Below are positions 26,389-41,864 of a DNA stretch of 64,000 nucleotides, in pieces (positions within the stretch are counted from its first letter, which is position 1; each line of letters opens with the position of its first letter). Under the pieces are notes generated by a model that made no database searches, was not told where the DNA came from, and saw only the letters and a program-made list of their open reading frames with translations. Made by a program: the position numbers and the translations under genes. This DNA comes from a phage: assembly GCA_014687725.1 (NCBI GenBank), contig GCA_014687725.1_4094.1. One strand, 5' to 3'.

Positions 26389-26389
26389 T

Positions 26390-29175: not shown

Positions 29176-29187
29176 ACTTTACATCAG

Positions 29188-29207
29188 GTGGGGAATAGTT
29201 CCCCACT
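29188..29207 (+). promoter_or_regulatory. conserved 5'-UTR stem-loop (example copy)
   Basis: GTGGGGA-atagt-TCCCCAC between -10 box and SD. Confidence 0.5.
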
Positions 29208-29226
29208 ATATAAGAGGATTAAAAAA

Positions 29227-29466: not shown

Positions 29467-29548
29467 GAGAATAGATTAAAAGTACTATTGCACGGTGATA
29501 GTACTTTATAATAGATTTCTTTTATACAACAACGATAGGGGTAACAGC

Positions 29549-29815
29549 ATGAATATTATATACTTTGCAACGCGTGAACTTGCTCGGATTGCCGCACGCC
29601 AGGACGGGGCGACGTTTAAAGATATGGGCGTACAATCTGAACGTGGTAAACGTTGGGCCGTAGTAAAGCAAAGTACAGCCCGTTCAATTCAGTACTGGCT
29701 ATCTGCTTTAAAGCGTCCTGATAGTGTATCGCGTCGCGTGGTAGAAATAAAGCACGACCGCAAGGGCAACCGCGTTACTGTGTACAGTACTAAAAAGATT
29801 GCAGTACTTGAATAA
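29549..29815 (+). CDS. hypothetical early protein, paralog of 41865-42260
   Basis: Shared YATRE.ARI.AR..GA.FKDMG...RWAV and HDRKGNRVTVYS blocks. Confidence 0.55.
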   Translation: MNIIYFATRELARIAARQDGATFKDMGVQSERGKRWAVVKQSTARSIQYWLSALKRPDSVSRRVVEIKHDRKGNRVTVYSTKKIAVLE

Positions 29816-29901
29816 AAAGTACTTGCAAACTATGTTTAAGGGCGTATAATGTTTTACATCGAGAGCGGGAATAGTTCCCGCCTATAACCAGGAGTAATAA
29901 A

Positions 29902-30132
29902 ATGACCAATATGTATATGACTGAAGTTAAAACCGTAAAAGATACTACCACTAATAAAACTACTTACTTACAGCGGATCTGCGGTGTATGGCAACGTATC
30001 AGCAAATCAAAGTACTTTAAATTAACATCATATGCCAATCGTTCGGATTCATTCAGTACTGAAATAAAAGGTAATAAAGTACACCAATACGGCACTTATT
30101 ATTATTATAGCCTGGAGGCGATTGCAGTATAA
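29902..30132 (+). CDS. hypothetical early protein
   Basis: Promoter + GCGGGAA-tag-TTCCCGC leader hairpin + AGGAG. Confidence 0.55.
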   Translation: MTNMYMTEVKTVKDTTTNKTTYLQRICGVWQRISKSKYFKLTSYANRSDSFSTEIKGNKVHQYGTYYYYSLEAIAV

Positions 30133-30159
30133 GTAGTTTACAAATCTTTACAATTGCCA

Positions 30160-30350
30160 GTATTGACTTATTTTGTCAGTACTGGCATAATGTATTCATT
30201 GGCAGATAAGCCGTAGCCCATAGGGTGCGGGAGTGTATCTATAGAAAAATTAGTTTAGTATAGTTACAATTGTGCACCCGGTGGGTTAGCTGTTGTCATG
30301 GGGTATATTATGCCAGTACTTGATAATGCTGTCAATACTTTTTTTTAATA
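30160..30350 (+). repeat. structured repeat element with own promoter (candidate small RNA)
   Basis: TTGACT, 17 nt, CATAAT, then inverted arms CCCATAGGGTGC ... GCACCCGGTGGG and U-run; arms recur elsewhere. Confidence 0.35.
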
Positions 30351-30559
30351 TTCAGTACTGAAAACTATTTTTAAAAAGTACTTGCAAACTATGTTTAAAG
30401 GCGTATAATGTTTTACATCAGGACGGGGGACGAAATAAGTAACTTCCCGTTAAGTAGCCCAGGAGTAAGGCACACGAAAAACTCCCCTGATAAAATAGTT
30501 TGACAATTGTTTTTAAAAGCGTATAATACTTACATCAACTACTGAATGAGGGTTACAAA

Positions 30560-31171
30560 ATGAAAACTATCACTACTACTACTTTCGTTATGGATTTTTC
30601 TGAATTGAACGCAGAACAACAAACGTCAGCTATCGAACTGGTTCGGGAACGTGAAAAAAACTCAAACGACAATTATTTTTCTGAAAGTGAAATTGAATAC
30701 TATAAAGAAACAGTACTACCGGAATATGGCATTAATGACGCTGAAATACAATTCAGTGGTTTTTGGTCCCAGGGTGACGGTGCATCAATCAGTACTGACC
30801 ACGTTGACGCAGTGAAGTTTTTACGCAAGGTAAGAGCATTAACTAAGTATCGCTCAATCCGTCACCTGCTGAATGAAGATGATTTGGCGATGAGTGTAAA
30901 GCGTTCTCACTCCCACTACTCGCATGAGAATACTGTAAGCGGGTACATTGAATCGGCTTACACTGATTTAACCGCAAAACAAGAAACGTTAGTTAATGAG
31001 CTTGAGGAACTACTCACTGAAACTATTCGTGAATTGTCCCGCAAGTTGTACCGTGATTTAGAGAATGCATATGAGGATCAATTCACTACTGAAAACATTA
31101 CGGCACTGATTGAGGGTAACGAATATCAATTCAATGTTATTGATGGCGTAGTAGAATCAATCGAATATTAA
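30560..31171 (+). CDS. hypothetical early protein (203 aa)
   Basis: Tandem promoters with structured leader upstream; ATG after GAGGG. Confidence 0.6.
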   Translation: MKTITTTTFVMDFSELNAEQQTSAIELVREREKNSNDNYFSESEIEYYKETVLPEYGINDAEIQFSGFWSQGDGASISTDHVDAVKFLRKVRALTKYRSIRHLLNEDDLAMSVKRSHSHYSHENTVSGYIESAYTDLTAKQETLVNELEELLTETIRELSRKLYRDLENAYEDQFTTENITALIEGNEYQFNVIDGVVESIEY

Positions 31172-31264
31172 TTCAAAAAGTACTTGCAAACTAAGTTTAA
31201 AAGCGTATAATACTTTATATCGAGGCGGGGAATGGTTCCCCGCTCACACTAAAAGGGCAACAAA

Positions 31265-31537
31265 ATGAAAACTTTAAATATCACAACTGCACATCAATTG
31301 GTTCGGGATGCAATGGATCATGTGCAAGATTTCTTCCCTGATGTAAGTGTCGTAACTTATGAAAAAGGTACTTGGACTTATTCAACAATTAATGGTTATG
31401 AGCCTGATTTCGATGATCTGGAAGAAATGGAATTTAATTTTGATCTGCTGAATGATGCCGCCCGTGAAGTTGAAAACGATGTTCAATACATTGATGGTTC
31501 TGTCGCACCTGATGCAGTAAAAGAATTAAAAAACTAA
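31265..31537 (+). CDS. hypothetical acidic protein
   Basis: Promoter + leader hairpin + ATG. Confidence 0.55.
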   Translation: MKTLNITTAHQLVRDAMDHVQDFFPDVSVVTYEKGTWTYSTINGYEPDFDDLEEMEFNFDLLNDAAREVENDVQYIDGSVAPDAVKELKN

Positions 31538-31622
31538 AAAGTACTTGCATTGTAGTTAGATTAACGTATAATACTTTATATCGAGGCGGGGAATGGTTCC
31601 CGCCTTTACTGAGGGTTATCTA

Positions 31623-31883
31623 ATGAGCAAAGTAATTAACTATACAGTGTTAAGCAAGTCATTGTCTATTAGCCAATGTACTGATGGTTATTGGCTTTAT
31701 GATGAAACGCGTGGCATGAATTTAGCTATGCAGGAGAAAACTACTGATGCGGCATATCTTAAAGCACTGGAATACTACCAGAAGCGTTTAAAGGAAGTAG
31801 AAAACGATTATAATAACCTGAAAGCGAAAGTAGATAATTTCGTTGGTCAATTCATCGAGGAAGACGACGACATACAATATTGA
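31623..31883 (+). CDS. hypothetical early protein
   Basis: Start moved to ATG downstream of leader hairpin. Confidence 0.5.
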   Translation: MSKVINYTVLSKSLSISQCTDGYWLYDETRGMNLAMQEKTTDAAYLKALEYYQKRLKEVENDYNNLKAKVDNFVGQFIEEDDDIQY

Positions 31884-31968
31884 AAAAGTACTTGCAATTA
31901 GTTTTTAGTACTGTATAATGGTTTACATAGAGGGGGAAATGGTTCTCCCTGGTAATGAGGAAAATAAA

Positions 31969-32190
31969 ATGGCTAATATCACTACTCTTTCCCAACTGGA
32001 AGCACTGGTTAAATCTATGCGGGAACATGCCGACAAAATCGGCGTACAAGATCCAGCCGTTTGCTTCTGCGACGAATTGAATGATGATACCCTGGTAATA
32101 GCAGAAGTCCAGGACGTTTCTAACTATTCCTCGCGTTACACTGGCGGCGTAGCAAATAAAGGTGACTTCTGTTTATACCTTACAAAATAA
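31969..32190 (+). CDS. hypothetical early protein
   Basis: Start moved to MANITTL after AATGAGGAAAATAAA. Confidence 0.5.
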   Translation: MANITTLSQLEALVKSMREHADKIGVQDPAVCFCDELNDDTLVIAEVQDVSNYSSRYTGGVANKGDFCLYLTK

Positions 32191-32194
32191 CAAC

Positions 32195-32225
32195 GCGGGG
32201 AGATAATAACTCCCCGTTACTTTTT
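32195..32225 (+). terminator. intrinsic terminator
   Basis: GGGGAG-ataataa-CTCCCC then gttaCTTTTT. Confidence 0.5.
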
Positions 32226-32433
32226 CAGTACTGAATCATTTAATAGACGGATCTCGGCACCCGGTGGGTTAGTGACTGTTTCGTCTTGATGTAGTAATTA
32301 TGCCAGTACTGGATGCACTTGTCAACAACTATTTTTCAAATACTTTTTATTAAAATACTTGCAATTAGTTTTTAAACGCGTATAATGTTTTGCATAGGGG
32401 GAGCGGTTCCCCTGGTAACTAAGGAATAAGAAA

Positions 32434-32670
32434 ATGGTCGAACAAATCAAATCAACGTCTTCGAATGTAACGGGAACGGTAGCACACTTTACTAGTGATG
32501 AATCGCGGGGCGTTCCCTATTGTGCTGTACATGTAAACACTGAGGGTAACTACTGGTTTACGGTTTACGGATCATATTCATTTGGACGGCCAGGGCATCA
32601 AAAAATTCTGGATAAAGTACAACCAACGGGTAAAAATATCACTGCCGAAATGTTTTATAAAAAATCATAA
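32434..32670 (+). CDS. hypothetical early protein
   Basis: Promoter + hairpin + AAGGAATAAGAAAATG. Confidence 0.55.
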   Translation: MVEQIKSTSSNVTGTVAHFTSDESRGVPYCAVHVNTEGNYWFTVYGSYSFGRPGHQKILDKVQPTGKNITAEMFYKKS

Positions 32671-32754
32671 AGTACTTGATAATAGTTTTTAGTACTGTAT
32701 AATATTTTACATCGCAAGGGGGAGCGGTTCCCCCTGGTAACTAAGGATAATCAA

Positions 32755-33054
32755 ATGAAAATTGCAATCATCGCCCTGGCTTTATCTGTTTCCTCTTTCG
32801 CTGTTAATGCGTCATTAGATGTAAGTAGTGAAAAATTCATTCAGTGCACTGTTGCAATGACCGATGAAAGTACTGGCGAGATTGTTTTAAAGGATTTAGA
32901 GATCCAGCCAGAAGCATTTAAAAACGGGCCGTTCCATGAAGAAGACGAAAAAGGTAGCACGACAATTTATTACGATGCAAGTACTAAACGCGGTTCGGTC
33001 ACTGTTATGGATACTGAGAAAGTTACATTCACTGGCGTAATTAATTGTTTATAA
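32755..33054 (+). CDS. secreted/periplasmic small protein (predicted signal peptide)
   Basis: MKIAIIALALSVSSFAVNA/SLD: n-h-c regions with AxA-like cleavage site. Confidence 0.6.
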   Translation: MKIAIIALALSVSSFAVNASLDVSSEKFIQCTVAMTDESTGEIVLKDLEIQPEAFKNGPFHEEDEKGSTTIYYDASTKRGSVTVMDTEKVTFTGVINCL

Positions 33055-33071
33055 TATAGTACTGAATCACT

Positions 33072-33100
33072 AGCCCACTATAAGAAGTGGGCTTTTTTTA
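33072..33100 (+). terminator. intrinsic terminator
   Basis: AGCCCACT-ataagaa-GTGGGCT + TTTTTTT. Confidence 0.65.
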
Positions 33101-33292
33101 TTGTAGTATTGTAGTACTGGTATACTTTGAAAATAGTTTTAAAAAAGTAGTTGACATTACCAGGGAAAAGCGTAGAATGTATTACATCAAGACGGGGAAC
33201 ACTAAGTAGACCGCCAGTAAGTCGAATGAAAAACTGGACACGTCAAACAAACTTTGATAAACTAACTTAAACTTTAATTGAGGATTTATAAA

Positions 33293-33775
33293 ATGGCTAA
33301 TGTAAAATCATTTCTGAAAGCACTGATTTCTAACGATACTGTTATTGCTGCTGAATTGCTGGCTGACCTGGATAATGATACCATGAAAGCAGTACGCAAC
33401 AATTTTAACATTGCTTACAGTGAAGCGAAAGAACTACAAGCCAAAAAGGTAGCAGAACTGGAAGAACAGAAAAAAGCCCGTGAAGCAGAACTGCAAGCAA
33501 CAATAGAAAGTATTCAGGCGGCGGTGTCTGGTTTAGATCTGGAAGTGGTTATTGAAATGGCACATAAAGCCCTGGCGGTTAAGTACGGTGAAGATAAGCC
33601 GGAATCTAAGCCTAAAAAATGGATTCAAGAACGTGTTACGGTTGTCCTTGATAACGGGGAAGAACATTTGATTCCTGTACGCGGTAACTGCATTGCGGTA
33701 GTACTGGATGCAATCAAAGAAAGCGGTATGACTCGCGAGGAATGGATCGAAGCTCACCGCAAAGTTGAAGCATAA
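33293..33775 (+). CDS. hypothetical protein (160 aa), coiled-coil-like central region
   Basis: Start moved to MANVKSF after GAGGA; K/E/A-rich heptad-like stretch. Confidence 0.55.
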   Translation: MANVKSFLKALISNDTVIAAELLADLDNDTMKAVRNNFNIAYSEAKELQAKKVAELEEQKKAREAELQATIESIQAAVSGLDLEVVIEMAHKALAVKYGEDKPESKPKKWIQERVTVVLDNGEEHLIPVRGNCIAVVLDAIKESGMTREEWIEAHRKVEA

Positions 33776-33796
33776 CAATTAAAGTACTGAATCACT

Positions 33797-33823
33797 AGCC
33801 CACTGTATAAGTGGGCTTTTTTG
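33797..33823 (+). terminator. intrinsic terminator
   Basis: AGCCCACT-gtata-AGTGGGCT + TTTTTT. Confidence 0.65.
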
Positions 33824-34059
33824 TGTTTATCGTTTACCAGGCCACCAGCACCGCCTAGAATCGATTCTAACGCATTAAACTGATTATCTGATGCATCGCC
33901 CTAGCTGGTGGCGTTAAGGTCGTTAGAATGCGATTGAGGACGTTTAAAGTATTTTGCAAAAAGTAATAAAAAGTACTTGCACGATTAAGAGATTAGCGTA
34001 TAATGTTTTACATCGAGAGGGGGAAACGGTTCTCCTTCCAAATCAAAGGAATCAAAACA

Positions 34060-34287
34060 ATGGCTATCGTAATCGCTTATGTAACTGGTACTACTGGCAC
34101 TTCTTCTACTGTTGCTGTAATTACCAACAAGAAAGGTGCGGAATTACATTCTGCAATGGATACCTGGGCGGTAAATGAGTTCGGTCAGTGGGCAAGTGTA
34201 GCATATGTTGAAACCTATCAAGTGCCAACCATTAGCTTAACGGATCTCGGTGTAGATCGTATCCTTTGCCTGGATGAATTAAATTAA
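34060..34287 (+). CDS. hypothetical early protein
   Basis: Start moved to MAIVIAY downstream of leader hairpin. Confidence 0.5.
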   Translation: MAIVIAYVTGTTGTSSTVAVITNKKGAELHSAMDTWAVNEFGQWASVAYVETYQVPTISLTDLGVDRILCLDELN

Positions 34288-34373
34288 AAAAGTACTTGCA
34301 AAGTAAATCAGATAAAGTATAATACATTACATCAAGGGGAGAAATGGTTCTCCCTGATAATGAGGAAACTAAT

Positions 34374-34517
34374 ATGAAAACTTGTCAATGTGGTAAAAAA
34401 TCTATTACTGGTTTAAAGCGGGGCGTTGCTCTTTGCCAGTACCATTATAATTTACAAGTATGGGGTAAAGAATGGGCCGACCAGGTGGAAGCAGCAAAGA
34501 AAGCAAAAAGTAAGTAA
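34374..34517 (+). CDS. small Cys-containing protein (47 aa)
   Basis: Below track cutoff; full promoter-hairpin-SD-ATG context; CQCG...C.YH pattern. Confidence 0.4.
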   Translation: MKTCQCGKKSITGLKRGVALCQYHYNLQVWGKEWADQVEAAKKAKSK

Positions 34518-34536
34518 AATTATTATCACAGTACTA

Positions 34537-34565
34537 TTGACATAGATTGATAGTACTGGCATAAT
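34537..34565 (+). promoter_or_regulatory. early promoter (type 2, AGTACT-flanked)
   Basis: cAGTACTaTTGACA, 17 nt, gatAGTACTGG-CATAAT; no 5' hairpin; recurs at ~34820, ~37690, ~37970, ~38500, ~45410. Confidence 0.5.
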
Positions 34566-34598
34566 AGATTTTATCAAGACAACTAAGAGGAAACAATA

Positions 34599-34811
34599 AT
34601 GGCTATCATCACAAAAATCAAAGTAAACAAATCACTGGTTAAGCTGGAAGAAGTGAAAGAAGGTTATAAAGTATCGTGGTGCGGCATGTATCGGATTTTT
34701 ACAGATGTTGACGATGCAATCAATTACTACACTGACACGGTAAAAAACTTTGTTCGTGCTGATGTGGTTATGGCAGTGGCAACACACAAAGCATCGAAAG
34801 AAAGTAAGTAA
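34599..34811 (+). CDS. hypothetical early protein, paralog of 37763-37942
   Basis: Both start MAII.K; type-2 promoter upstream. Confidence 0.55.
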   Translation: MAIITKIKVNKSLVKLEEVKEGYKVSWCGMYRIFTDVDDAINYYTDTVKNFVRADVVMAVATHKASKESK

Positions 34812-34892
34812 AAATATTATCACAGTACTATTGACATAGTTTGATAGTACTGGCATAATAGATTTTATCAAGACAACTAAGAGGAAATTAAA

Positions 34893-35237
34893 ATGGCTAA
34901 TATCAACACTATCGCAAAACAAAATATCAACCTGTCTTCTGTTGAAGTTGTACATATTGCCGCTCGGCGTTGGTTCCAGGCTTCATATGGTAACACTTAT
35001 TTCTCTTTAAGTGTAGACGTAGAAATTGATGGTAATTTTATTGAAGTAGTAAACGTGCCGTTCCAATATGGATACGGGGATCACTTTGACACTGTAGCAA
35101 TGGAAGAATTTAGCAAGGTTATTAATATGGAAGATAAAGAGTTTTTACGCGGTTCTTATCTTTCCCGTTTTTGCCGTGACAATAATATCACTGTTTACAG
35201 TTCGGTAACTGATGTTAAACGCAAAAAAGATCTTTAA
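34893..35237 (+). CDS. hypothetical protein, paralog of 41446-41769
   Basis: Shared W...GNTY.S..V and F.YGYG and ITVY..V.DVKRKKD blocks. Confidence 0.6.
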   Translation: MANINTIAKQNINLSSVEVVHIAARRWFQASYGNTYFSLSVDVEIDGNFIEVVNVPFQYGYGDHFDTVAMEEFSKVINMEDKEFLRGSYLSRFCRDNNITVYSSVTDVKRKKDL

Positions 35238-35317
35238 TTAGCTTTACTTTATGCAGATACTTTGATATAGTGTCTGCATAGGGGAAAGAAATTAAATTAA
35301 CTTAAGAGGATAGTATA

Positions 35318-35587
35318 ATGAAAAATATCAGTACTTTAATTGATGCAGGTACACATGTTCGGCGGTCTATGGTTGCAACCAGTACTACAAAACAAGTAGC
35401 GAGCGGTTATCTTGTATTTGTGCACGATGGTAAACTCCTGGAACGTTCAATCAATTTTGATGTTAAAAACAATTGCCGTTTTATTATCTTTAAGCGTGAA
35501 CAATATAAAATTGATTTACCAGCGAAGCCCATAAGCGGGGCGTATAACGTCTATTCATTGTTTGAGCGTCAACCATACACCTATTAA
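35318..35587 (+). CDS. hypothetical early protein
   Basis: ATG after AAGAGGA. Confidence 0.5.
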   Translation: MKNISTLIDAGTHVRRSMVATSTTKQVASGYLVFVHDGKLLERSINFDVKNNCRFIIFKREQYKIDLPAKPISGAYNVYSLFERQPYTY

Positions 35588-35638
35588 TCAAAACATCGTT
35601 AGCGGTCGATTTAGGCCGCTTATATTGGGGATTATACC

Positions 35639-35911
35639 ATGAACGTTAATCAAGTACTGAATGAGATCGAAAGCATCATTAAACCGATGAAGCGTACTGA
35701 TGCTATGTTAACACCGGAAGAATGCCGCCTTTATGAGCGTTACAGCGTCGAACAAGTCCAGGCAATGGCTATGGCTACGCCAGCCGTTAAACCGCCTGAG
35801 AATGCGTTACAGGACGTTACAGGGGATTATATCATCAATCCAGTACTAGGGAAGATGGCTGCAATCACCGAAGATCAACAAGACTACTTAAGCCAGTACT
35901 TAAAAGGTTAA
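35639..35911 (+). CDS. hypothetical early protein
   Basis: ATG start; operon with next gene. Confidence 0.5.
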   Translation: MNVNQVLNEIESIIKPMKRTDAMLTPEECRLYERYSVEQVQAMAMATPAVKPPENALQDVTGDYIINPVLGKMAAITEDQQDYLSQYLKG

Positions 35912-35916
35912 TTAAT

Positions 35917-36126
35917 ATGCTTACTGTACAGGATAAGATCGACATCTTAAAGGTTAATATGTATGTGATTGATGCAGTACCTGGTAAAGTATTTGCATAC
36001 GATGACACCACTGTAAGCGATTTCTACTATAGCCAGGACGTGGGGGATCTTTCTGTACAGTCGGTTATTGAAAACGTAGTTAATGCAGCGTATGAGCATT
36101 TACTTTCAAATAGTACTTGCAATTAG
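35917..36126 (+). CDS. hypothetical early protein
   Basis: 5-nt spacing after previous gene. Confidence 0.5.
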   Translation: MLTVQDKIDILKVNMYVIDAVPGKVFAYDDTTVSDFYYSQDVGDLSVQSVIENVVNAAYEHLLSNSTCN

Positions 36127-36195
36127 TTTTTAAACGCGTATAATGTTTTACATGAAGGGGAGAAATGATTCTCCCCACTAATTAAGGAATATGAA

Positions 36196-36342
36196 ATGAA
36201 AGCATCAAAAAAGAGTAATACTAAGAAAGCACGTTCACCTTTCGCTGGGGTATTCCCTTTACGTTTCGTTGATGAAGTGGTTTCCTACCCGCCTGGCCTT
36301 ACTCCTGAGATGGTAGAAAGTTTGCGTAAATCTAAAAAATAA
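36196..36342 (+). CDS. small basic protein (48 aa)
   Basis: Below track cutoff; promoter, GGGGAGAA-atga-TTCTCCCC hairpin, AAGGAAT SD. Confidence 0.4.
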   Translation: MKASKKSNTKKARSPFAGVFPLRFVDEVVSYPPGLTPEMVESLRKSKK

Positions 36343-36423
36343 TACTTGCAATTAGTTTTTAGTACTGTATAATAGTTTACATGAAGGGGAGAAATAGTTC
36401 TCCCCAATAACAGGAGAAACAAA

Positions 36424-36576
36424 ATGAAACAATATAATGCTCGGATGGATGTAACTATCGGTAACGGCAAAGGTCAATTCTCTTTCAGTACTCGCAAAAG
36501 TTATACAGAAAACTTCCTGCGTAATTGTGCACTGACCGCCGCACAAATTAAACATTACTTTCAGGCTAAAAAATGA
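36424..36576 (+). CDS. small protein (50 aa)
   Basis: Below track cutoff; same promoter/hairpin/SD context. Confidence 0.4.
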   Translation: MKQYNARMDVTIGNGKGQFSFSTRKSYTENFLRNCALTAAQIKHYFQAKK

Positions 36577-36662
36577 AATCATTAGCTTATTACAGTTCGG
36601 CCCTGGTCGGTGCATTGATCGCGGCATTGTTAGTAACCTATCTATTCTTTATGGTGATTTAA
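36573..36662 (+). CDS. very small hydrophobic peptide (29 aa)
   Basis: ATGA-coupled; single predicted TM helix; speculative. Confidence 0.25.
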   Translation: MKSLAYYSSALVGALIAALLVTYLFFMVI

Positions 36663-36800
36663 ATGAATCCTAACGGTTTAATTTACAGTACTCCTAAAAC
36701 GAAAGCAGATAAAGCGAAAGCACGTAAAGCGAAAGTAAAGGAGTACATCAAGCAAGGCATGACGCGAAAGGCGGCAATTCTAAAAGCTAAAAATAAATGA
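36663..36800 (+). CDS. small lysine-rich protein (45 aa)
   Basis: TAAATG coupling; followed by terminator/promoter hairpin. Confidence 0.35.
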   Translation: MNPNGLIYSTPKTKADKAKARKAKVKEYIKQGMTRKAAILKAKNK

Positions 36801-36810
36801 AAAAAAAAGT

Positions 36811-36840
36811 GGTTGACTTCGGTCAGCCATTTTGCTATTA
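36811..36840 (+). promoter_or_regulatory. terminator/promoter element (copy 4)
   Basis: GGTTGAC-TTCG-GTCAGCC hairpin, TTTT, TATTAT. Confidence 0.5.
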
Positions 36841-37024
36841 TGTATTCATTGAGAGATAGCTCACTAGCCCACAGGGTGCATAAGTGTATCTATTGTATAA
36901 TGATTGAGTACTGAAAACTATTTTAAAGTATTTGATAAAAAGTACTTGCATACTATCTCAATAGGCGTATAATGTTTTACATCGCAAGGGGAAACGGTTT
37001 CCCCTGGTAATAAGGAAACGAATC

Positions 37025-37366
37025 ATGACTATTGCAATTGCTCAATCTAACTTTGAAAACGAAATCATCGCTCAGGCACTGCGTTTAAATGATGGTCGGG
37101 CCGAAATCAATTACGGTTTCAATAGTGGTGGATGTGAAAAATATCAGTACTTTATAACTGCTGATGGCGGTGTCCTGGGCATCAATACCGTTATTGTAAA
37201 CATTCAGAAAATTAATTTCAATGATCCAGACGATAGCCAGTTTTACATCACGGGCGTAGACGTGAACTATGAGGATGACTCACTAACTGATGATCACACT
37301 GGTGAGAAGTTAGAAAGTGCATACGGTGAAGATGATTATCAGTCCGGTCCAGAAGATTTCGAATAA
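37025..37366 (+). CDS. hypothetical acidic protein
   Basis: Promoter + leader hairpin + AAGGAAACGAATCATG. Confidence 0.55.
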   Translation: MTIAIAQSNFENEIIAQALRLNDGRAEINYGFNSGGCEKYQYFITADGGVLGINTVIVNIQKINFNDPDDSQFYITGVDVNYEDDSLTDDHTGEKLESAYGEDDYQSGPEDFE

Positions 37367-37458
37367 TATTAAAAAATAGTTTGACAATAGTTTTTAGTAC
37401 TGTATAATAGTTTACATGAAGGGGAGAAATGATTCTCCCCACTAAGAGGAAAAACAAA

Positions 37459-37671
37459 ATGGCTAATATCCGCACTGTACTGAAAAATGCAAAACAAGTT
37501 TTATTTTCTGATCATGAAAATTTCAACAAGGATATCACAGGTGTTCGGAATATCAAAGATGTAAAAAGTGTTATGGGTATCTATTGCAATATGAAACGTG
37601 TTGGCACGTTCGGCGATAAAGTACTATACCAGGCAGGGGATTACAATTTTACACTGACTATCATTAACTAA
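37459..37671 (+). CDS. hypothetical early protein
   Basis: Start moved to MANIRTV after AAGAGGA. Confidence 0.55.
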   Translation: MANIRTVLKNAKQVLFSDHENFNKDITGVRNIKDVKSVMGIYCNMKRVGTFGDKVLYQAGDYNFTLTIIN

Positions 37672-37762
37672 AAATATTATCACAGTACTATTGACAACGT
37701 TTGATAGTACTGGCATAATAACTTTTATCAAGACAACGCATATTAATTTAAGGAATACTAAA

Positions 37763-37942
37763 ATGGCTATTATCGCAAAAACTGAAATCATCGGCCTGGA
37801 TTCTATCATCATGACGTTTGAAGATCAAAAAGGGATGTATGTAGTTTCCTATGGTGATTATGTTCGGGAGTATGAAACGGTAGACGAAGCCTTTGAAAGT
37901 TACATTCGCCAGGTGAATAAAGCATACGACGACTACCGCTAA
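37763..37942 (+). CDS. hypothetical early protein, paralog of 34599-34811
   Basis: Start moved to MAIIAKT; type-2 promoter upstream. Confidence 0.5.
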   Translation: MAIIAKTEIIGLDSIIMTFEDQKGMYVVSYGDYVREYETVDEAFESYIRQVNKAYDDYR

Positions 37943-38041
37943 AATATATTACCAGTACTATTAAATCTATTGACAATGATTGATAGTACAGTATAATAAG
38001 TTTTATAAACAGTAGTTAACTTAACCTAAGAGAGAAACAAA

Positions 38042-38185
38042 ATGATCGCACTGGATTCATTCATCGACGCAGTACTGGCAAAAACTGGCGAGGATCTGAC
38101 CGCAGAACAATACGCGATGATCGAGCAATGCCAGCAAAACGGTAAATCGGTGAAAGATACTGTTAAGATTATCCGCAAGATGTAA
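38042..38185 (+). CDS. small protein (47 aa)
   Basis: Below track cutoff; type-2 promoter, AAGAGAGAAA SD, terminator downstream. Confidence 0.4.
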   Translation: MIALDSFIDAVLAKTGEDLTAEQYAMIEQCQQNGKSVKDTVKIIRKM

Positions 38186-38191
38186 GAATAT

Positions 38192-38220
38192 AGCCCACTG
38201 GTTAACGCTGGTGGGCTTTA
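38192..38220 (+). terminator. intrinsic terminator containing a Chi octamer
   Basis: AGCCCAC-tggttaacgct-GGTGGGCT + TTT; GCTGGTGG at ~38207-38214. Confidence 0.45.
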
Positions 38221-38290
38221 ATCATTTACCCTATACAATGCCAGTACTAAACCGTTTAACTCGTTAGAATGCATTACAGGACGTTTAACA

Positions 38291-38488
38291 ATGATTAGCA
38301 TGAAATCAGTACAAAAACAAATTGATACATTATCAAAAATTAAACGTAAACAATACTCATTAGAATATACAATCAATGGTAACTATCATCTAATGAAAGA
38401 GAATAATTTCATAGTCATTGATGAATCATTGCAAGTTATTAGTATAGTACTGAAAGCATTAATCAATGACAGAAAAAAGTTAAAATAA
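38291..38488 (+). CDS. hypothetical AT-rich small protein
   Basis: Track ORF; weak start context. Confidence 0.35.
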   Translation: MISMKSVQKQIDTLSKIKRKQYSLEYTINGNYHLMKENNFIVIDESLQVISIVLKALINDRKKLK

Positions 38489-38589
38489 TCTATTGACAAA
38501 TTATGCCAGTACTGGCATAATACTTACATCAAGACGAGAACGTCACTAACCCATAGGGTGCACAAATGTAGCTGTCTAATATTGATCAA

Positions 38590-38640
38590 AAAATGATCTG
38601 ATCAATACTTGATCAATTTGCGTAAAGTAGTATAATTCTA
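38590..38640. repeat. cluster of TGATCA/GATC motifs
   Basis: tgatcaaaaaatgatctgatcaatacttgatcaa in a ~240-bp gene-free stretch. Confidence 0.4.
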
Positions 38641-38819
38641 TGCAGTTGGTTAGACGAAAGGTTATGATTAGTAGTGGAAGTGTATAAAAATTTTCATGGT
38701 GTGGTGATCCGCACATATGGGGATGAATATGTCGTGTCGTATGGATTGGAAAAAGTAAGAACAAGTAATATACTTGTCGCGTTACAGTACTATAGTATTT
38801 TTATAATGAGGTTAAAATA

Positions 38820-39077
38820 ATGGCTGTAGGATTCACGAAAGATGGGGCCGAGCAAGACGAGATTAACGCAGTGATTCAGGCCGCTGTTAACCACGCTAGA
38901 ACGCAAATTAACGCACAAATAGAATCACTGATACATTGCCTCGACTGCGGCGATATAATCCCTGAGAAACGACGCCAGGCCGTTAAGGGATGTAAGTACT
39001 GCATAACTTGCCAGGAGGATCATGATAGTACTTTTAAACGTCCCCCGCGTAATTGTTGGCATAGATCTATGAGATAA
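38820..39077 (+). CDS. TraR/DksA-family C4 zinc-finger protein
   Basis: CLDCGDIIPEKRRQAVKGCKYCITCQ: CxxC-17-CxxC spacing typical of TraR/DksA. Confidence 0.7.
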   Translation: MAVGFTKDGAEQDEINAVIQAAVNHARTQINAQIESLIHCLDCGDIIPEKRRQAVKGCKYCITCQEDHDSTFKRPPRNCWHRSMR

Positions 39078-39140
39078 AAAGTATTGACAGTACTGAAAGA
39101 TAGTGTATAATATTTTATATCTTAACTGAGGATTGAAATC

Positions 39141-39497
39141 ATGGGAATACAACATATCACGCGTACTACTGACAATGGCGAGATCACTGGCTATCAAGTA
39201 CAGGGCAAAGTAGCACAATTGCAGTACTGGTTTGTTAAACGTGGAATCATTGCACCGGATCTTGATTATGACCGTGTAGCGTTTATTGATTCTCTTTATG
39301 TTGATCCTGATAGTCGGGGCAATGGTGAAGGTAACGAATTAATGAATGCCTTTATTGATGCCGCCGATGATTCAGATTGTATCATTTTAGAATGCGATAC
39401 GGGAGAAGATAACGCCTTTAATCTTAAAGAATGGTACGAAGGTTTCGGATTCGAGGTACTGATCGATAGTGAATATCCTATCATGATTTTATCATAG
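39141..39497 (+). CDS. GNAT-like N-acetyltransferase (small)
   Basis: VAFIDSLYVDPDSRGNGEGNELMNAF ... NAFNLKEWYEGFGF resembles GNAT motifs A/B. Confidence 0.5.
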   Translation: MGIQHITRTTDNGEITGYQVQGKVAQLQYWFVKRGIIAPDLDYDRVAFIDSLYVDPDSRGNGEGNELMNAFIDAADDSDCIILECDTGEDNAFNLKEWYEGFGFEVLIDSEYPIMILS

Positions 39498-39575
39498 TAC
39501 TTGCATTTAGTTTTCAGTACTGTTATAGTACTTACATCAAGGGGAAACATCTTCCCCTACTAAGAGGAAATAAAA

Positions 39576-39764
39576 ATGGAAAACTTATCAAGTATTTTAG
39601 TACAAGATGATTTCGGTAATCCTGGAAGTGCTATCATTGTTCGGGGTAATAAAGCAACATTTGTTATTGCTGGTGGACCTGTACAGCGTAGCATTAAAAA
39701 TAATGCTGTTACCATTAATAATGTACGCTATCGCTTAGATAAAGAATTGATTCATAAACTTTAA
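39576..39764 (+). CDS. hypothetical early protein
   Basis: Promoter + hairpin + AAGAGGAAATAAAAATG. Confidence 0.5.
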   Translation: MENLSSILVQDDFGNPGSAIIVRGNKATFVIAGGPVQRSIKNNAVTINNVRYRLDKELIHKL

Positions 39765-39848
39765 AAAGTATTTGACAATAGATTATAGTACTGTATAATA
39801 AGTTACATGAAGGGGTGAAATGATTCTCCCCACTAAGAGGAAAGAAAA

Positions 39849-40061
39849 ATGCAAGGTCAACTAATCGTTCGTAAATGGTCTGATACTAACGAAAAACCGT
39901 GGGATGTACAATACATCGGACCGGATGGGGTATCACGTTATCAGCCTGGCGTAACGCATAGTACTGAGCAATTCGCAAACGCTCACCGCGAACGCCTGTT
40001 AGAATCCATGAAACAGGGATTCTGTGAAAAATTCATTCAAGATCATTGGCTGAAAGATTAA
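39849..40061 (+). CDS. hypothetical early protein
   Basis: Promoter + hairpin + SD. Confidence 0.55.
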   Translation: MQGQLIVRKWSDTNEKPWDVQYIGPDGVSRYQPGVTHSTEQFANAHRERLLESMKQGFCEKFIQDHWLKD

Positions 40062-40078
40062 TATAAGGAGTACAGCTT

Positions 40079-40171
40079 ATGCAAATGAATCCGATGATTA
40101 TTGTTTTAGCTGTACTTATGATCATTCATGCAATAGTAGAAGTATTAACGCAATCAGGAGTAATAAAATGA
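40079..40171 (+). CDS. very small hydrophobic peptide (30 aa)
   Basis: AAGGAG 8 nt upstream; ATGA-coupled to next ORF; speculative. Confidence 0.3.
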   Translation: MQMNPMIIVLAVLMIIHAIVEVLTQSGVIK

Positions 40172-40341
40172 TTCAAGTAGAATTATCAGTACTGAAAGAT
40201 CTGTTTTATCGGTTAGGTACTACTGGCGAGTATCCTAAAAGTGATACCGCAAAACTTTTTGTATCACTCGACTTATGGCAACGCGAACAATTAGTAATGT
40301 CCTGGCGTAAAGGTAAAGCAGATAGCGAGGTGAAAGCATGA
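40168..40341 (+). CDS. small protein (57 aa)
   Basis: Below track cutoff; ATGA coupling both sides. Confidence 0.4.
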   Translation: MIQVELSVLKDLFYRLGTTGEYPKSDTAKLFVSLDLWQREQLVMSWRKGKADSEVKA

Positions 40342-40487
40342 AAGAATTCTTATTCGAAGTAGTGTTTCAAGGTGTCGGTAGTAACCAACTGATTCGCTCA
40401 AGTGGTTACAATGTTAACCAGGCATGGAATAACATTAAACAAATGTACCCGAACGCTATCACCTATCGCAACCCGAAACAAGTTTAA
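40338..40487 (+). CDS. small protein (49 aa)
   Basis: Below track cutoff; followed by terminator/promoter hairpin. Confidence 0.4.
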   Translation: MKEFLFEVVFQGVGSNQLIRSSGYNVNQAWNNIKQMYPNAITYRNPKQV

Positions 40488-40501
40488 AAATAATTGAAAA
40501 A

Positions 40502-40534
40502 GGGATTGACTCCGGTCAGTCCCTTTGCTATTAT
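40502..40534 (+). promoter_or_regulatory. terminator/promoter element (copy 5)
   Basis: GGGATTGAC-TCCG-GTCAGTCCC, TTTG, TTGACT/17 nt/TATTAT. Confidence 0.55.
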
Positions 40535-40635
40535 ATACGCATAGAAACAAATCAGCCCACAGGGTGCATAAATGTATCTATTGTTTGCTGGTGGCTAGTA
40601 CTATCAAGTACTGAAAACTATTTTTAAAAAAGTAC

Positions 40636-40663
40636 TTGCATTGTACTTAGAATCAAGTATAAT
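40636..40663 (+). promoter_or_regulatory. early promoter P1 of tandem pair
   Basis: TTGCAT, 16 nt, TATAAT; upstream A/T-rich tract and TCAGTACTGA. Confidence 0.5.
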
Positions 40664-40751
40664 GTTTTACATCAGGACGGGGAACGAAACAAGTAACCCC
40701 GTTAAGTAGTCCAGGAGTAAGACATAAGAAAACCTCCCCTGATAAAATAGT

Positions 40752-40779
40752 TTGACAATAGAAAGTAAACGAGTATAAT
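40752..40779 (+). promoter_or_regulatory. early promoter P2 of tandem pair
   Basis: TTGACA, 16 nt, TATAAT; separated from P1 by a ~60-nt structured leader, duplicated at 30360-30560. Confidence 0.5.
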
Positions 40780-40812
40780 ACTTACATCAACCACTGATAA
40801 GGAAACATTAAA

Positions 40813-41088
40813 ATGCGGATTCTACTGACAGCTAACGAAATCGAACAAGTACTGACTACTAACCTGGAAGACTGGAAACGTGAAGCAGATATCCAGGCGG
40901 TTCAACGGCTTAACGATGAGTTAACGCCGGATGACTTAAGCAAGATTGTAGATCCTCAATTCTACGAAGATATCCACGACACCGCGTTAAGCGTCGAGGA
41001 TGTACTAGATAAGCACTACATTGATATTGATTTGCAGGTTTACGGTCGTAAAAACTTTATCACTATTCACGACATTTACAATAATTAA
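40813..41088 (+). CDS. hypothetical acidic protein
   Basis: ATG after AAGGAAACATTAAA. Confidence 0.55.
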   Translation: MRILLTANEIEQVLTTNLEDWKREADIQAVQRLNDELTPDDLSKIVDPQFYEDIHDTALSVEDVLDKHYIDIDLQVYGRKNFITIHDIYNN

Positions 41089-41174
41089 GTATTGACAAAG
41101 TATCTTAGTACTGTATAATAGTTTACATCGAGAGGGGGAATGGTTCCCCTCCTAACAAAGAGAGAGAAATAAAA

Positions 41175-41357
41175 ATGGCTAAATGCACTATCTGTAAGAA
41201 AGAAATCGTATTAGTTCCAAGTGCCCGTGAACGTGCCGCTCGGTTCGGTGGCAAACCGTCAGACTATACAAAAATGTTTACTGTCCATGCAGCTTGCCAG
41301 GTAGCAAAACGTTCACAAGAAAGCGTAGAATTAATGCGTAAACTTTCCAAAAAATAA
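41175..41357 (+). CDS. hypothetical small protein
   Basis: Promoter + hairpin + GAGAGAGAAATAAAAATG. Confidence 0.5.
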   Translation: MAKCTICKKEIVLVPSARERAARFGGKPSDYTKMFTVHAACQVAKRSQESVELMRKLSKK

Positions 41358-41445
41358 GTATTGACAAAGTATCTTAGTACTGTATAATAGTTTACATCAA
41401 GTGAGGGGAAACGGTTCCCCTCCTAACAAAGAGAGAGAAATAAAA

Positions 41446-41769: not shown

Positions 41770-41864
41770 TAGAATCCATTTAAAGTACTATTTGACATTG
41801 CCCAGATAGTACTTTATAATAGACTCTAACTTGTAGTACTAACTCAACTAATAGGATGTATACC

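Follow-up and report, generated by a model that had tools for sequence, protein, structure and literature searches.

The window analysed here, a 64,000-nt stretch of phage DNA, belongs to an Asteriusvirus-like jumbo coliphage whose early region carries about 27 cassettes, each with a promoter and a 5′ hairpin. Only 3 of these ~27 early promoters are followed by a short non-coding leader with a conserved, predicted RNA pseudoknot as its core (Table 1). In the 30k and 40k units, a σ70-type promoter (P1) precedes a type-1 leader, a second promoter (P2) and a small gene. P1 of the 30k unit has an A/T-rich upstream element and belongs to the 27-copy promoter family D1. The 33k unit has a third, diverged leader copy, placed at 33184-33262, and its candidate P2 overlaps the 3′ arm of stem B, a layout also found in the relatives L081 and L084. 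The 33k and 40k units directly follow terminator-like hairpins (an intrinsic terminator at 33072-33093 just upstream of the 33k P1), and thus begin transcription units. Some 19 other early promoters place a GGGG..CCCC 5′ hairpin at the position where the type-1 closing stem begins, about +3 on the predicted transcript.

Table 1. Promoters, leader elements and genes of the three units (positions in the window).
Feature	Position	Strand	Details
P0, 30k locus	30163-30191	+	TTGACT, 17-nt spacer, extended -10 TGGCATAAT; read from alignment; homologous to D18 repeat family
Leader X core	30220-30245	+	GCCCAUAGGGUGC..GUGUAUCUA; second repeated non-coding module
P1, 30k unit	30382-30409	+	TTGCAA 30382-30387, 16-nt spacer, TATAAT 30404-30409; 10/12 consensus match
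Type-1 leader, 30k unit	30415-30498	+	predicted three-way junction; in 45 phage records
30k closing stem	30417-30422/30486-30491	+	
30k hairpin A	30423-30429/30444-30450	+	
30k UAAGUAG	30451-30457	+	single strand
30k pseudoknot helix	30457-30471	+	G30457-C30471, C30458-G30470, C30459-G30469
30k stem B	30462-30465/30482-30485	+	
P2, 30k unit	30500-30527	+	TTGACA 30500-30505, 16-nt spacer, TATAAT 30522-30527; 12/12
Gene after 30k unit	30560-31171	+	ATG at 30560; 203 aa; function unassigned; phrog_5162
P1, 33k unit	33151-33178	+	TTGACA-16-TAGAAT
Type-2 leader, 33k unit	33184-33258	+	without hairpin A; 52.6 bits
33k outer stem	33186-33190/33254-33258	+	
33k stem	33191-33194/33241-33244	+	
33k UAAGUAG	33203-33209	+	
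33k pseudoknot	G33209-C33223, A33210-U33222, C33211-G33221	+	
33k stem B	33214-33217/33234-33237	+	
Candidate weak P2, 33k unit	33235-33263	+	TGGACA-17-TGATAAACT, extended -10; 9/12 with TG
Gene after 33k unit	33293-33775	+	160 aa; function unassigned; phrog_27871
P0, 40k locus	40499-40534	+	TTGACT-17-TATTAT inside 12-bp hairpin; family D18
P1, 40k unit	40636-40663	+	TTGCAT 40636-40641, 16-nt spacer, TATAAT 40658-40663; families D1/D2
Type-1 leader, 40k unit	40669-40750	+	53.7 bits
40k closing stem	40671-40676/40738-40743	+	
40k hairpin A	40677-40682/40697-40702	+	
40k UAAGUAG	40703-40709	+	
40k pseudoknot	G40709-C40723, U40710-A40722, C40711-G40721	+	
40k stem B	40714-40717/40734-40737	+	
P2, 40k unit	40752-40779	+	TTGACA-16-TATAAT; 12/12
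Gene after 40k unit	40813-41088	+	ATG at 40813; 91 aa, acidic; function unassigned; phrog_14947

Upstream of the 30k and 40k units lie a further promoter (P0) and leader X, giving three tandem promoters at each locus. The 40k P0 is a composite of a terminator-like hairpin and a promoter. Leader X is present in four copies in the window and in 64 records, all named as RaK2-group jumbo phages.

The sequence-only reading had described the 30k and 40k units as highly similar tandem-promoter units ahead of unrelated genes, and this description holds: the promoters and ATGs of both were located, with both P2s matching the consensus at all 12 positions, and the downstream proteins of 203 and 91 aa fall in different PHROGs. 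Identity is 81% over 201 nt and 89% (75/84) in the leader, with 66% in the P1 core and 75% in the P2 core, and drops to background (~50-53%) both in the 150 nt upstream and over the first 200 nt of coding sequence. The related leader reported near 33.2 kb was recovered by both the core pattern and a covariance model (52.6 bits). The core pattern occurs exactly three times in 64 kb (0.00 expected), and the covariance model of the core returns the same three sites at 52-57 bits, the next match reaching 8 bits. The 5′ leader word ACATCARGACGGGGRAC has six occurrences at ≤3 mismatches (0.23 expected). The first stem (ACGGGG/CCCCGU), whose substitutions were thought to be compensatory, shows one-sided G-C to G-U changes or mismatches and no double changes. 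A real compensatory difference between the two copies is instead C30458:G30470 versus U40710:A40722.

The leader core has the consensus UAAGUAG-N-C..(4-5 bp stem)..UAAG-N′-C-N4-GAAAA..(stem). Judged from the alignment, it is best read as an H-type RNA pseudoknot, wherein UAAGUAG-N-C pairs through its G-N-C with G-N′-C in the loop of a 4-5 bp hairpin (stem B), the 16-17-nt loop ending in an A-rich GAAAA(A) tract. Among 38 distinct sequences, many of them closely related so that independent substitution events are fewer than the counts suggest, the N:N′ pair is AU in 25, UA in 6, CG in 5 and GC in 1, with one mismatch. It thus uses all four Watson-Crick types, and is the top mutual-information pair of the alignment. 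Stem B also covaries (CG/GC, CG/GC/UA and UA/AU), and 96% of the cells of stem B and the pseudoknot helix are paired in the same 38 sequences, versus 16-39% after shifting the 3′ partners by 1-3 columns. G-U pairs, together with an orientation that is always sense, indicate a + strand RNA. That the G and C flanking the covarying pair, as well as UAAGUAG, UAAG and GAAAA, do not vary is in part a product of the patterns used for searching; among four homologues obtained by BLAST, variants are few (GAACAAC, UCAG). When folded by itself as a nested structure, the core has low stability (-2.8 to -6.7 kcal/mol; z-scores +0.07 to -2.2), in keeping with a structure that would depend on tertiary interactions or a binding partner. 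The closing stem of type-1 leaders does not vary, and the changes in hairpin A are one-sided, so the evidence for the three-way junction is conservation and folding energy (z-scores of only -1.1 and -2.4).

The type-1 leader is found in 45 records, among them Vequintavirinae and Stephanstirmvirinae whose P1, P2 and genes differ, and the type-2 leader in 39, including an Erwinia jumbo phage. A T7-type spacer is found in 573 records, nearly all T7-like phages, the weakest few being Asteriusvirus type-2 loci. Besides T7, hundreds of virulent phages of enterobacteria thus carry the motif. All 28 metagenome pattern matches (28/28) lie in the same promoter context. No match was found in 5,426 complete E. 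coli genomes, and among 185,579 species genomes the sole true member is a T7-like phage fragment, with none in bacterial chromosomes. The motif is always promoter-proximal and in sense orientation, 24-61 nt from the -10, and its near-invariant unpaired nucleotides are conserved across at least five phage lineages. A σ70-like promoter starts ≤46 nt downstream of the motif in 72 of 74 distinct instances. Depending on the lineage, the P2 -35 lies anywhere between -3 and +46 nt from the motif, and the relative L037 carries the motif but no P2. Some 18-22 nt beyond the motif, L037 (GCTCTTTAACAA) and L033 (GCTCTTTAAAAA) have a boxA or a similar sequence; the window has no boxA-like sequence beyond chance. 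Comparison of downstream genes by PHROG ties the motif to no gene family. The early cassettes are common to other phage families, in shuffled order, and at the 40k unit the segment from leader through P2 to gene matches part of Justusliebigvirus muut at 92.5% identity.

In T7, nt 549-589 score 61.9 bits with the covariance model, versus 52.6-57.1 for the three window copies. The annotation puts the E. coli-RNAP promoters A1, A2 and A3 at 498, 626 and 750, which places the motif at +52 to +92 of the A1 transcript, with another hairpin between it and the 5′ end; it is the single copy in nt 1-1500 (A1-A3), the stretch searched with the model. On sequence comparison, the tandem promoters of the window with their conserved spacer share a homologous core with the A1/A2 arrangement of T7, and this core is very probably a conserved pseudoknotted RNA homologous to the A1-A2 spacer. 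Both systems have strong same-direction σ70 promoters ~120 bp apart, a hairpin (hairpin A) just 5′ of UAAGUAG, and similar initial transcribed sequences (AUCGAGAGGG in T7 A1, ACAUCGAGAGGGG in many window promoters). They differ in that the type-1 motif of the window is enclosed by a closing stem using the transcript 5′ end, and in the sequence of hairpin A. The gap from motif to P2 is 14 nt (type-1) or -3 nt (33k type-2) in the window and 2 nt in T7-likes, and T7-likes have a boxA downstream of A3, whereas the window units have none. Further, the window has three copies per ~20 kb before unrelated ORFans, while T7 has one, which precedes gene 0.3. Inspection by eye shows no RNase III site in the window units. 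The GAAAAA tract of T7-likes occupies roughly positions -48 to -43 relative to A2, where an UP element would sit, and part of its conservation could act at the DNA level. No prior description of the motif was found in Rfam or the literature, which was searched short of older T7 papers and assigns no function to the T7 A1-A2 segment.

The covariation of stem and pseudoknot, the constant sense orientation downstream of a σ70 promoter and the T7 homology together argue for a structured element acting on the transcribed strand. To this extent the earlier proposal, a short regulatory RNA from P1 or an attenuator controlling P2 (taken here as a discrete RNA with an intrinsic terminator, or a leader tuning read-through into P2 and the gene), was sound, but neither a terminator nor the link to P2 control was borne out. 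The leader is indeed structured and non-coding (the 40k copy has no equivalent of the 31-aa ORF at 30408-30503), and a second promoter would compensate for termination. However, neither the 30k nor the 40k unit has a hairpin plus U-tract between P1 and P2, while the same scan finds terminators nearby, so a terminated short RNA or classical attenuator is without sequence basis. The tract after the leader is A-rich rather than U-rich, no alternative terminator/antiterminator pairing is evident, and the variable distance to P2, with its absence in L037, speaks against control of P2. Such a terminated RNA or attenuator is therefore quite improbable; release of a short RNA from the P1 transcript by processing is possible.

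The favoured reading builds on a non-coding cassette logic, which is reasonably probable. Each unit would be one small non-coding member of a shuffled array of early cassettes. In it, the host σ70 promoter P1 would transcribe an ~80-nt structured leader, with the promoter P2 and gene of the next cassette directly after. On this view P2 is there as the promoter of the downstream gene, which forms a cassette of its own; as no terminator intervenes, transcripts from P1 probably continue through P2. The pseudoknot would be made early and abundantly from P1 (P1 starts, leader 3′ end and abundance all being predictions), acting as an RNA in its own right and not as a regulator of the gene behind it. 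More tentatively, it may act in trans, as a module that a conserved host factor of Enterobacterales recognises. For the full account, a non-coding pseudoknot RNA cassette followed by the next cassette's promoter, the chances appear even.

A role in cis is unlikely, but has several observations in its favour. By itself or together with host factors of the Nus type, the pseudoknot might, as it emerges, modify the RNA polymerase started at P1, like HK022 put RNA or nut/boxB, for read-through of the downstream cassette hairpins or pausing at P2. This would suit the sense, promoter-proximal position of the motif, the copy heading the T7 early operon, the units that start right after terminator-like hairpins, the boxA sequences of L033, L037 and T7-likes, and the finding that hairpins of the promoter-early stem-loop (PeSL) type are terminators or attenuators in T4-type phages (PMC2839356). 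However, the strong promoter directly downstream would yield unmodified polymerases, which makes a cis-only role odd; the window is without boxA, and the motif has no likeness to any Rfam family, including the antitermination RNAs curated there. It is less probable still that a paired 5′ end and compact pseudoknot shield the P1 mRNA from 5′-end-dependent attack and scanning by RNase E, so that a stable long-leader isoform would exist beside a P2 isoform of lower stability. The type-1 closing stem begins at ~+3, exactly as do the 5′ hairpins of the other ~19 early promoters, and read-through into the gene is expected, but those ordinary hairpins already give 5′ pairing, a generic stabiliser needs no near-invariant unpaired nucleotides in so many lineages, and the T7 motif lies 52 nt from the 5′ end.

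The H-type topology, A-rich third loop and conserved unpaired nucleotides, as in preQ1-I, and a fold backed by covariation would also suit a riboswitch-like sensor that binds a small molecule and alters the fate of the P1 transcript. This is hardly likely for an element that occurs in phages only, ahead of unrelated ORFans, with no expression platform (no terminator, no sequestered SD) and no Rfam riboswitch match even at E≤10. Very improbable, lastly, is a purely DNA-level role, whether as a homology patch for cassette recombination (as PeSLs), conserved via recent horizontal transfer, or as an UP-like or activating site for P2. Cassettes have clearly been exchanged between phage families, and the GAAAAA tract of T7-likes is suitably placed; however, pseudoknot and stem covariation with G-U pairs is not selectable in duplex DNA, the spacing to P2 varies or P2 is missing, and the motif is kept where all flanks have diverged, e.g., between T7-likes and jumbo phages.

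Among known RNAs, the preQ1-I riboswitch and the T4 gene 32 leader pseudoknot share the topology S1-L1-S2-L2-S1′-L3(A-rich)-S2′, the conserved unpaired nucleotides and the 5′ leader position. The window motif, with an S1 of only 3 bp, an L2 of 3-4 nt and an L3 of 10 nt, differs in lacking an Rfam match, an expression platform and an associated gene family. HK022 putL/putR, lambda nut boxA/boxB and rrn boxB-boxA-boxC are likewise short structured sense RNAs just after early promoters; the A-rich GAAAA(A) tract, placed next to the 3′ arm of a short stem, is reminiscent of the boxB loop, and the motif adjoins a boxA in L033 and L037. Against this, there is no sequence or model similarity, the 16-17-nt loop is engaged in the predicted pseudoknot, and the window has no boxA. 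The PeSLs of T4-type phages (Arbiol et al., 2010, PMC2839356; Comeau et al., 2014, PMC4122927) differ in that the window phage is not T4-like, most window units have the stem-loop downstream of +1 (the RNA 5′ end), the leader is a predicted ~80-nt junction with a sequence-conserved pseudoknot and not a simple stem-loop, and the pseudoknot also occurs in podoviruses without PeSL arrays. Both nevertheless feature repeated σ70 early promoters preceded by A/T-rich sequence and adjoined by a GGGG..CCCC stem-loop, flanking small ORFans in a plastic region whose cassettes are shuffled between phages, and the P0 hairpin of the window overlaps the -35, as in a subclass of PeSLs.

Both duplicated tandem-promoter units described in the sequence-only reading can be read directly from the window, each consisting of a first promoter (P1), a leader and a second promoter (P2) ahead of a gene, with -35 elements 118 bp apart in the 30k unit and 116 bp apart in the 40k unit. 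The identity of the two copies, put earlier at about 85%, measures 81% over 201 nt and is unevenly distributed: the leader is 89% identical, the promoter cores are 66% and 75% identical, and the upstream 150 nt and the coding sequences are each about 50% identical. The downstream genes are indeed unrelated, with proteins that belong to different PHROGs of unknown function, and Pfam and PHROGs searches with all three downstream proteins (30k, 33k and 40k) returned no known function. A tRNA/tmRNA scan found none. The related leader suspected near 33 kb is also real, as a diverged copy recognized by both the core pattern and the covariance model. With up to 3 mismatches allowed, the core pattern occurs at exactly three sites in the window (30k, 33k and 40k; 0.00 expected), and the covariance model, run with filters off, gives these copies 52.6-57.1 bits, with the next match at 8 bits. 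The 30k and 40k leaders, which carry a 5′ hairpin (hairpin A), are referred to here as type 1, and the 33k leader, which lacks it, as type 2.

Positions of the promoters, leaders and start codons of the three units in the window
Unit	P0 (upstream promoter)	P1	Leader	P2	ATG
30k	30163-30191	30382-30409	30415-30498 (type 1)	30500-30527 (12/12 consensus)	30560
33k			33184-33262 (type 2)		
40k	40506-40534	40636-40663	40669-40750 (type 1)	40752-40779 (12/12 consensus)	40813

A protein-coding role for the leader was considered and rejected. A 31-aa ORF at 30408-30503 begins inside the -10 region, and its frame is not conserved between the copies; the 40k copy carries a 2-nt deletion and has no + strand ORF of at least 30 aa. 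Two "hypothetical protein" CDSs are annotated nearby in relatives, namely A4_267 of phage A4 (1494-1610 of the fetched locus), which covers P1 and runs into the 5′ start of the leader, and g05 of fEgEco12 (1987-2097 of its locus), which ends just upstream of the P1/leader region. Both are probably annotation artefacts, since the two window copies do not keep a common reading frame over the leader.

The 84-nt type-1 leader is found in 45 phage records. Asteriusvirus genomes carry it at two places, or at four where both terminal repeats are in the record, and in relatives whose record starts at the terminal repeat a type-1 copy lies at about 3.4-3.8 kb, within the annotated direct terminal repeats. 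It is about 90% identical in Vequintavirinae (A73, A7_1) and Stephanstirmvirinae (muut, outra, EmilieFrey), where it stands between a different P1 and P2 and before different genes. For the type-2 leader there are 39 records, among them one Vequintavirinae phage and one Erwinia jumbo phage. Common to both types is the core UAAGUAG-N-C-N2-[4-5-nt arm]-(N)-UAAG-N-C-N4-GAAAA-N-[arm], and an IMG/VR scan with this core led to the T7-like podoviruses. The T7 core, nt 549-589 (GAUAAGUAGACAGCCUGAUAAGUCGCACGAAAAACAGGUAU), has the annotated E. coli promoters A1 (498) and A2 (626) on either side and stops 2 nt short of the A2 -35. A BLAST search with the homologous stretch of phiA1122 matches 573 records. 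Nearly all are T7-like phages, those checked being Studiervirinae, and their hosts include Escherichia, Klebsiella, Salmonella, Yersinia, Enterobacter, Citrobacter and Cronobacter; the weakest few matches are Asteriusvirus type-2 loci. The core is also present in a Melnykvirinae phage. The motif is found in T7-like podoviruses and, among large virulent enterobacterial myoviruses, in at least four lineages. A 20-base version of the pattern has 28 metagenome matches, each a true member with the same promoter context. Two IMG/VR matches, one to an 18-nt word (L008) and one to a looser pattern (L046), were dropped as chance, being coding-looking sequence without promoter or stem. Inspection by eye had suggested another copy between T7 A2 and A3, which the model did not detect.

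Among bacterial and archaeal genomes (one per species, 185,579 species) there were 18 pattern matches, a single one of which scored like a family member, and this proved to be a 2.7-kb T7-like fragment (64.7 bits). The other matches reach at most 31 bits, and the stem is unpaired in the three whose alignments were shown. BLAST against 5,426 complete E. coli genomes gave no match to either the type-1 leader or the T7 segment. A bacterial origin, or mimicry of a host RNA, was rejected because the only family-like species-genome match is the T7-like fragment and E. coli gave none. Since no true match beyond that fragment exists in the bacterial genomes searched, the element, judged from its sequence distribution in these collections, belongs to virulent enterobacterial phages and not to hosts or prophages. 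Contigs of two Bacteroidales MAGs (L064 297-331 and L068 6957-6992) share UAAGUAG.CAG.AG.UAAGACAAAUGAAAAA with the stem missing, which is probably an unrelated conserved, perhaps coding, sequence and a chance match to the pattern.

The structure was assessed on 38 distinct core sequences, many of them closely related. The three variable pairs of stem B, the stem within the core, covary (CG 30 and GC 8; CG 28, GC 8 and UA 2; UA 24, AU 13 and UG 1). In addition, the nucleotide N that follows UAAGUAG and the nucleotide N′ that follows the loop UAAG are Watson-Crick complementary in 37 of 38 sequences (AU 25, UA 6, CG 5, GC 1), so that all four pair types are used, and N:N′ is the top mutual-information pair of the alignment. 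The flanking G and C extend this pair to a 3-bp helix, G-N-C:G-N′-C, which joins the 5′ single strand to the hairpin loop. Across stem B and this helix 96% of cells are paired, a figure that falls to 16-39% once the 3′ partners are shifted by 1-3 columns; none of 500 shuffles reached the observed covariation score. By these sequence comparisons, the core is an H-type pseudoknot with the A-rich ..CGAAAAA tract as its third loop. The search patterns themselves account in part for the invariance of UAAGUAG, UAAG and GAAAA and of the G and C that flank the pair; in the four homologues derived from BLAST the only variants are GAACAAC and UCAG.

This alters how the two window copies are read. The changes in the first stem, ACGGGG/CCCCGU, had been taken as compensatory, and among 13 distinct type-1 leaders they prove to be just one-sided G-C to G-U changes or mismatches; the closing stem, AUCAGG/CCUGAU, shows no variation in the same leaders. 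The copies differ at the pseudoknot pair, C30458:G30470 in the 30k unit and U40710:A40722 in the 40k unit, and it is here, in the predicted structure, that the genuine compensation between the copies lies. In the T7-like phages hairpin A, as judged by eye only, has complementary stems (CCGG/CCGG, CCAG/CUGG, CCAC/GUGG, ACCG/CGGU, GCGG/CCGC); differences in loop length shift the register of the ungapped alignment there.

The case for the structure is comparative because the nested fold is weak and thermodynamic support low. The core alone folds at -2.8 to -6.7 kcal/mol with z-scores of +0.07 to -2.2, the type-1 window cores being no better than shuffles, and the whole leaders have z-scores of just -1.1 and -2.4. 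The weak fold of the core suggests that it is stabilised by tertiary contacts or by a partner. The G-U pairs and the constant sense orientation indicate that the putative functional form is the + strand RNA.

By eye, the motif lies downstream of a sigma-70-type promoter in 74 of 74 distinct instances; a strict scan (-35 matching at least 4/6) locates the upstream promoter in 48 of 70, with the -10 found 24-61 nt before the motif. A second sigma-70-like promoter starts within 46 nt downstream in 72 of the 74, at an offset of 2 nt in most T7-like phages, 14-15 nt in most type-1 loci and -3 nt in window-type type-2 loci. An exception is the metagenomic phage contig L037 (4111-4180), where the boxA GCTCTTTAACAA follows the motif by 18 nt and the first gene comes next, with no credible P2. 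A second such contig, L033 (5386-5470), has a boxA-like GCTCTTTAAAAA about 18-22 nt past the motif. The downstream genes are unrelated, and the motif is tied to no gene family.

The reported unit is larger than first described, in that a further promoter, P0, stands upstream of both P1s and thus makes the 30k and 40k loci triple tandem promoters. In this module P0 (TTGACT-17-TATTAT) sits inside a 12-bp hairpin (AAAGGGATTGACTCCGGTCAGTCCCTTT), as at the 40k locus, while the variant at 30k has an extended -10. Downstream of P0 comes another short conserved leader, leader X (GCCCAYAGGGUGC..GUGUAUCUA), with the next promoter after it. P0 and leader X together occur in four window copies (30163-30245, 40499-40581, 43776-43858 and 46033-46114; repeat family D18). 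All 64 records that match leader X bear RaK2-group jumbo-phage names, with Escherichia, Klebsiella, Salmonella, Erwinia, Pectobacterium, Serratia and Cronobacter as hosts by name, and carry it at 1-8 places each (3-8 in most); no T7-like phage is among the matches listed. At 30307-30335 (-) a leftward sigma-70-like promoter (TTGACA-17-CATAAT with TG, 11/12 match) sits in an insertion of about 100 nt that sets the 30k locus apart from the other P0 modules, and this predicted promoter would direct transcription antisense across leader X.

The units belong to an early region built of promoter cassettes. The 301 nt around the 30k unit match the Asteriusvirus-type jumbo coliphages fEgEco12, PBECO4, 121Q and G17 at 95-99% identity, and in the records of relatives the genes of this region are annotated solely as hypothetical proteins. 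The sigma-70 early promoter AAAGTACTTGCA-N16-TATAAT-N6-ACAT (family D1) is present in 27 copies on the + strand at about 27.4-46.7 kb, 19 of which (family D2) have a GGGG..CCCC hairpin at the 5′ end of the transcript, with a Shine-Dalgarno sequence and a small ORF after it. Most of the approximately 27 early units (27400-46700, +) have the transcript start ACAUCGAGAGGGG.., folded into this 5′ hairpin. Early cassettes are common to the window phage and to Vequintavirinae and Stephanstirmvirinae, but in shuffled order: muut 1487-2014 matches window 40657-41184 at 92.5%, and the adjoining muut segments match window 34.9, 29.2 and 34.0 kb. This shuffled sharing fits a promoter- or hairpin-mediated modular exchange among unrelated coliphage families. 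In five loci of phages of these two subfamilies (L003, L004, L005, L012 and L015), small early gene cassettes of window 28.7-45.2 kb recur at 70-92% nucleotide identity. Beside the early region, 10590-22520 (-) holds an array of paralogous repeats of about 1.2 kb (families D3, D5, D7, D10 and D15) with conserved gene starts, which from its position probably corresponds to the consecutive genes annotated in 121Q as "putative DNA condensation protein (RCC1-like)". Two more clusters of short paralogous genes or repeats lie at 24830-26420 and 48320-53890; families D16 and D17 have conserved starts (AGGTACTAATATGCAYAAAGAATACTAC), and families D9, D14 and D20 a conserved internal block.

Taken together, there is little doubt that the three window sites carry a conserved pseudoknotted RNA motif, homologous to the core of the T7 A1-A2 spacer, between tandem host-type promoters. 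The motif is phage-specific and absent from Rfam 15. By analogy with T7, whose A1 start is annotated, P1 would be active and the leader transcribed. In T7, RNase III cuts the leaders from A1, A2 and A3 off the gene 0.3 mRNA at R0.3, so that the T7 motif would presumably reside on a released non-coding fragment. It is rather probable that P1 and its leader form a non-coding cassette of their own and that P2 is the promoter of the next cassette, which would explain both the unrelated genes downstream and the promoter that nearly always follows. As for what the RNA does, the suggestion advanced here, tentatively, is that it may be a trans-acting recognition module that binds a conserved host factor. 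This suggestion draws on the near-invariant unpaired nucleotides, the weak intrinsic stability, the presence of one copy in the T7 early-promoter stretch and three in the early region of the window, and the restriction to phages across unrelated lineages that share just the host clade and the use of host RNA polymerase. A compact pseudoknot would be transcribed from one of the first host-polymerase promoters used, and candidate partners would be RNA polymerase or Nus factors, Rho, RNase E or a defence sensor. An undescribed phage RNA might in this way act in its own right and, during the first minutes after infection, capture a core host factor or redirect it, although this too is put forward with reserve.

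A cis-acting put- or nut-like elongation element seems unlikely; a nut site is resembled by the motif and boxA arrangement of the two metagenomic contigs L033 and L037, and near the window units boxA matches occur at chance level only. Less likely again is a role as a 5′ stabiliser of the P1 transcript. The terminated small RNA or attenuator proposed in the sequence-only reading is now very improbable: no intrinsic terminator, that is, no G+C-rich hairpin with a U-tract, lies between P1 and P2 at 30k or 40k, whereas the same scan does detect terminators nearby, at 33072-33093 and 40499-40526, just upstream of the 33k and 40k units. A riboswitch is equally improbable, given that the leader has no expression platform and the downstream genes form no consistent functional class, even though its fold is conserved and covaries. 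A purely DNA-level role is scarcely to be believed, as a pseudoknot is not selectable in duplex DNA.

The architecture itself is already known, both as tandem early promoters and as PeSL-like cassettes, whereas neither Rfam nor the literature searched appears to describe the RNA motif or how widely it occurs. That literature, which did not extend to the classic T7 papers, held no description of the motif in T7 or Asteriusvirus; the classic papers may contain earlier notice of a hairpin or pause at T7 nt 550-590. The tandem early promoters of T7 are textbook material, yet in the literature searched the A1-A2 spacer carries no assigned role. Its core is now seen as a covariation-supported pseudoknot under strong selection in about 570 T7-like records; as a module it has also passed into unrelated jumbo and rV5/phAPEC8-like coliphages, and it is absent from the bacterial genomes searched. 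If the RNA does act on a host factor in its own right, a functional RNA has gone unnoticed within the T7 A1 transcript, a model transcription template for decades. The easiest of phage systems can be asked what the first RNA of these phages binds or does. Furthermore, annotators can recognise a non-coding cassette that present records either leave out or give wrongly as a small "hypothetical protein", as in A4_267 and g05.

Among known classes, Rfam 15 gave no match at the gathering threshold over the whole window, and at E<=10 the best scores for both units were 15-18 bits against gathering thresholds of 40-43, with nothing credible. A conserved covarying fold is shared with riboswitches, which does not show ligand binding, and unlike a riboswitch the leader has neither terminator nor Shine-Dalgarno sequestration and precedes unrelated genes of unknown function. 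A T7-type leader has a boxA and an RNase III site between its last promoter and the first gene; at the window units boxA-like matches do not exceed chance, P2 lies only about 30 nt from the ATG, and no long duplex is apparent by eye. Like the T7 A1-spacer-A2 stretch, the 30k and 40k units have at least two sigma-70 promoters of the same orientation within about 130 bp before an early gene. Homology to this spacer is confined to the core of about 40 nt (52.6-57.1 bits in the window and 61.9 bits for T7 549-589), and the spacer outside it is not alignable to T7. The initial transcribed sequence of T7 A1, AUCGAGAGGGAC, is also closely like the ACAUCGAGAGGGG start of the early units in the window. 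PeSL cassettes of T4-type phages combine a strong sigma-70 promoter with a stem-loop, flank small ORFans in a plastic region and mediate modular shuffling, marking where related phages exchange segments (PMC2839356; PMC4122927); in these phages the stem-loop acts as a terminator or attenuator, and the formation of mini-circles is likewise part of the class (PMC2839356). Window families D1 (27 copies) and D2 (19 copies) have the features of this class, namely an early sigma-70 promoter, A/T-rich sequence upstream and a G-tract/C-tract stem-loop. The early region of the window holds small hypothetical genes throughout, and its cassettes recur in shuffled order in other phage families.
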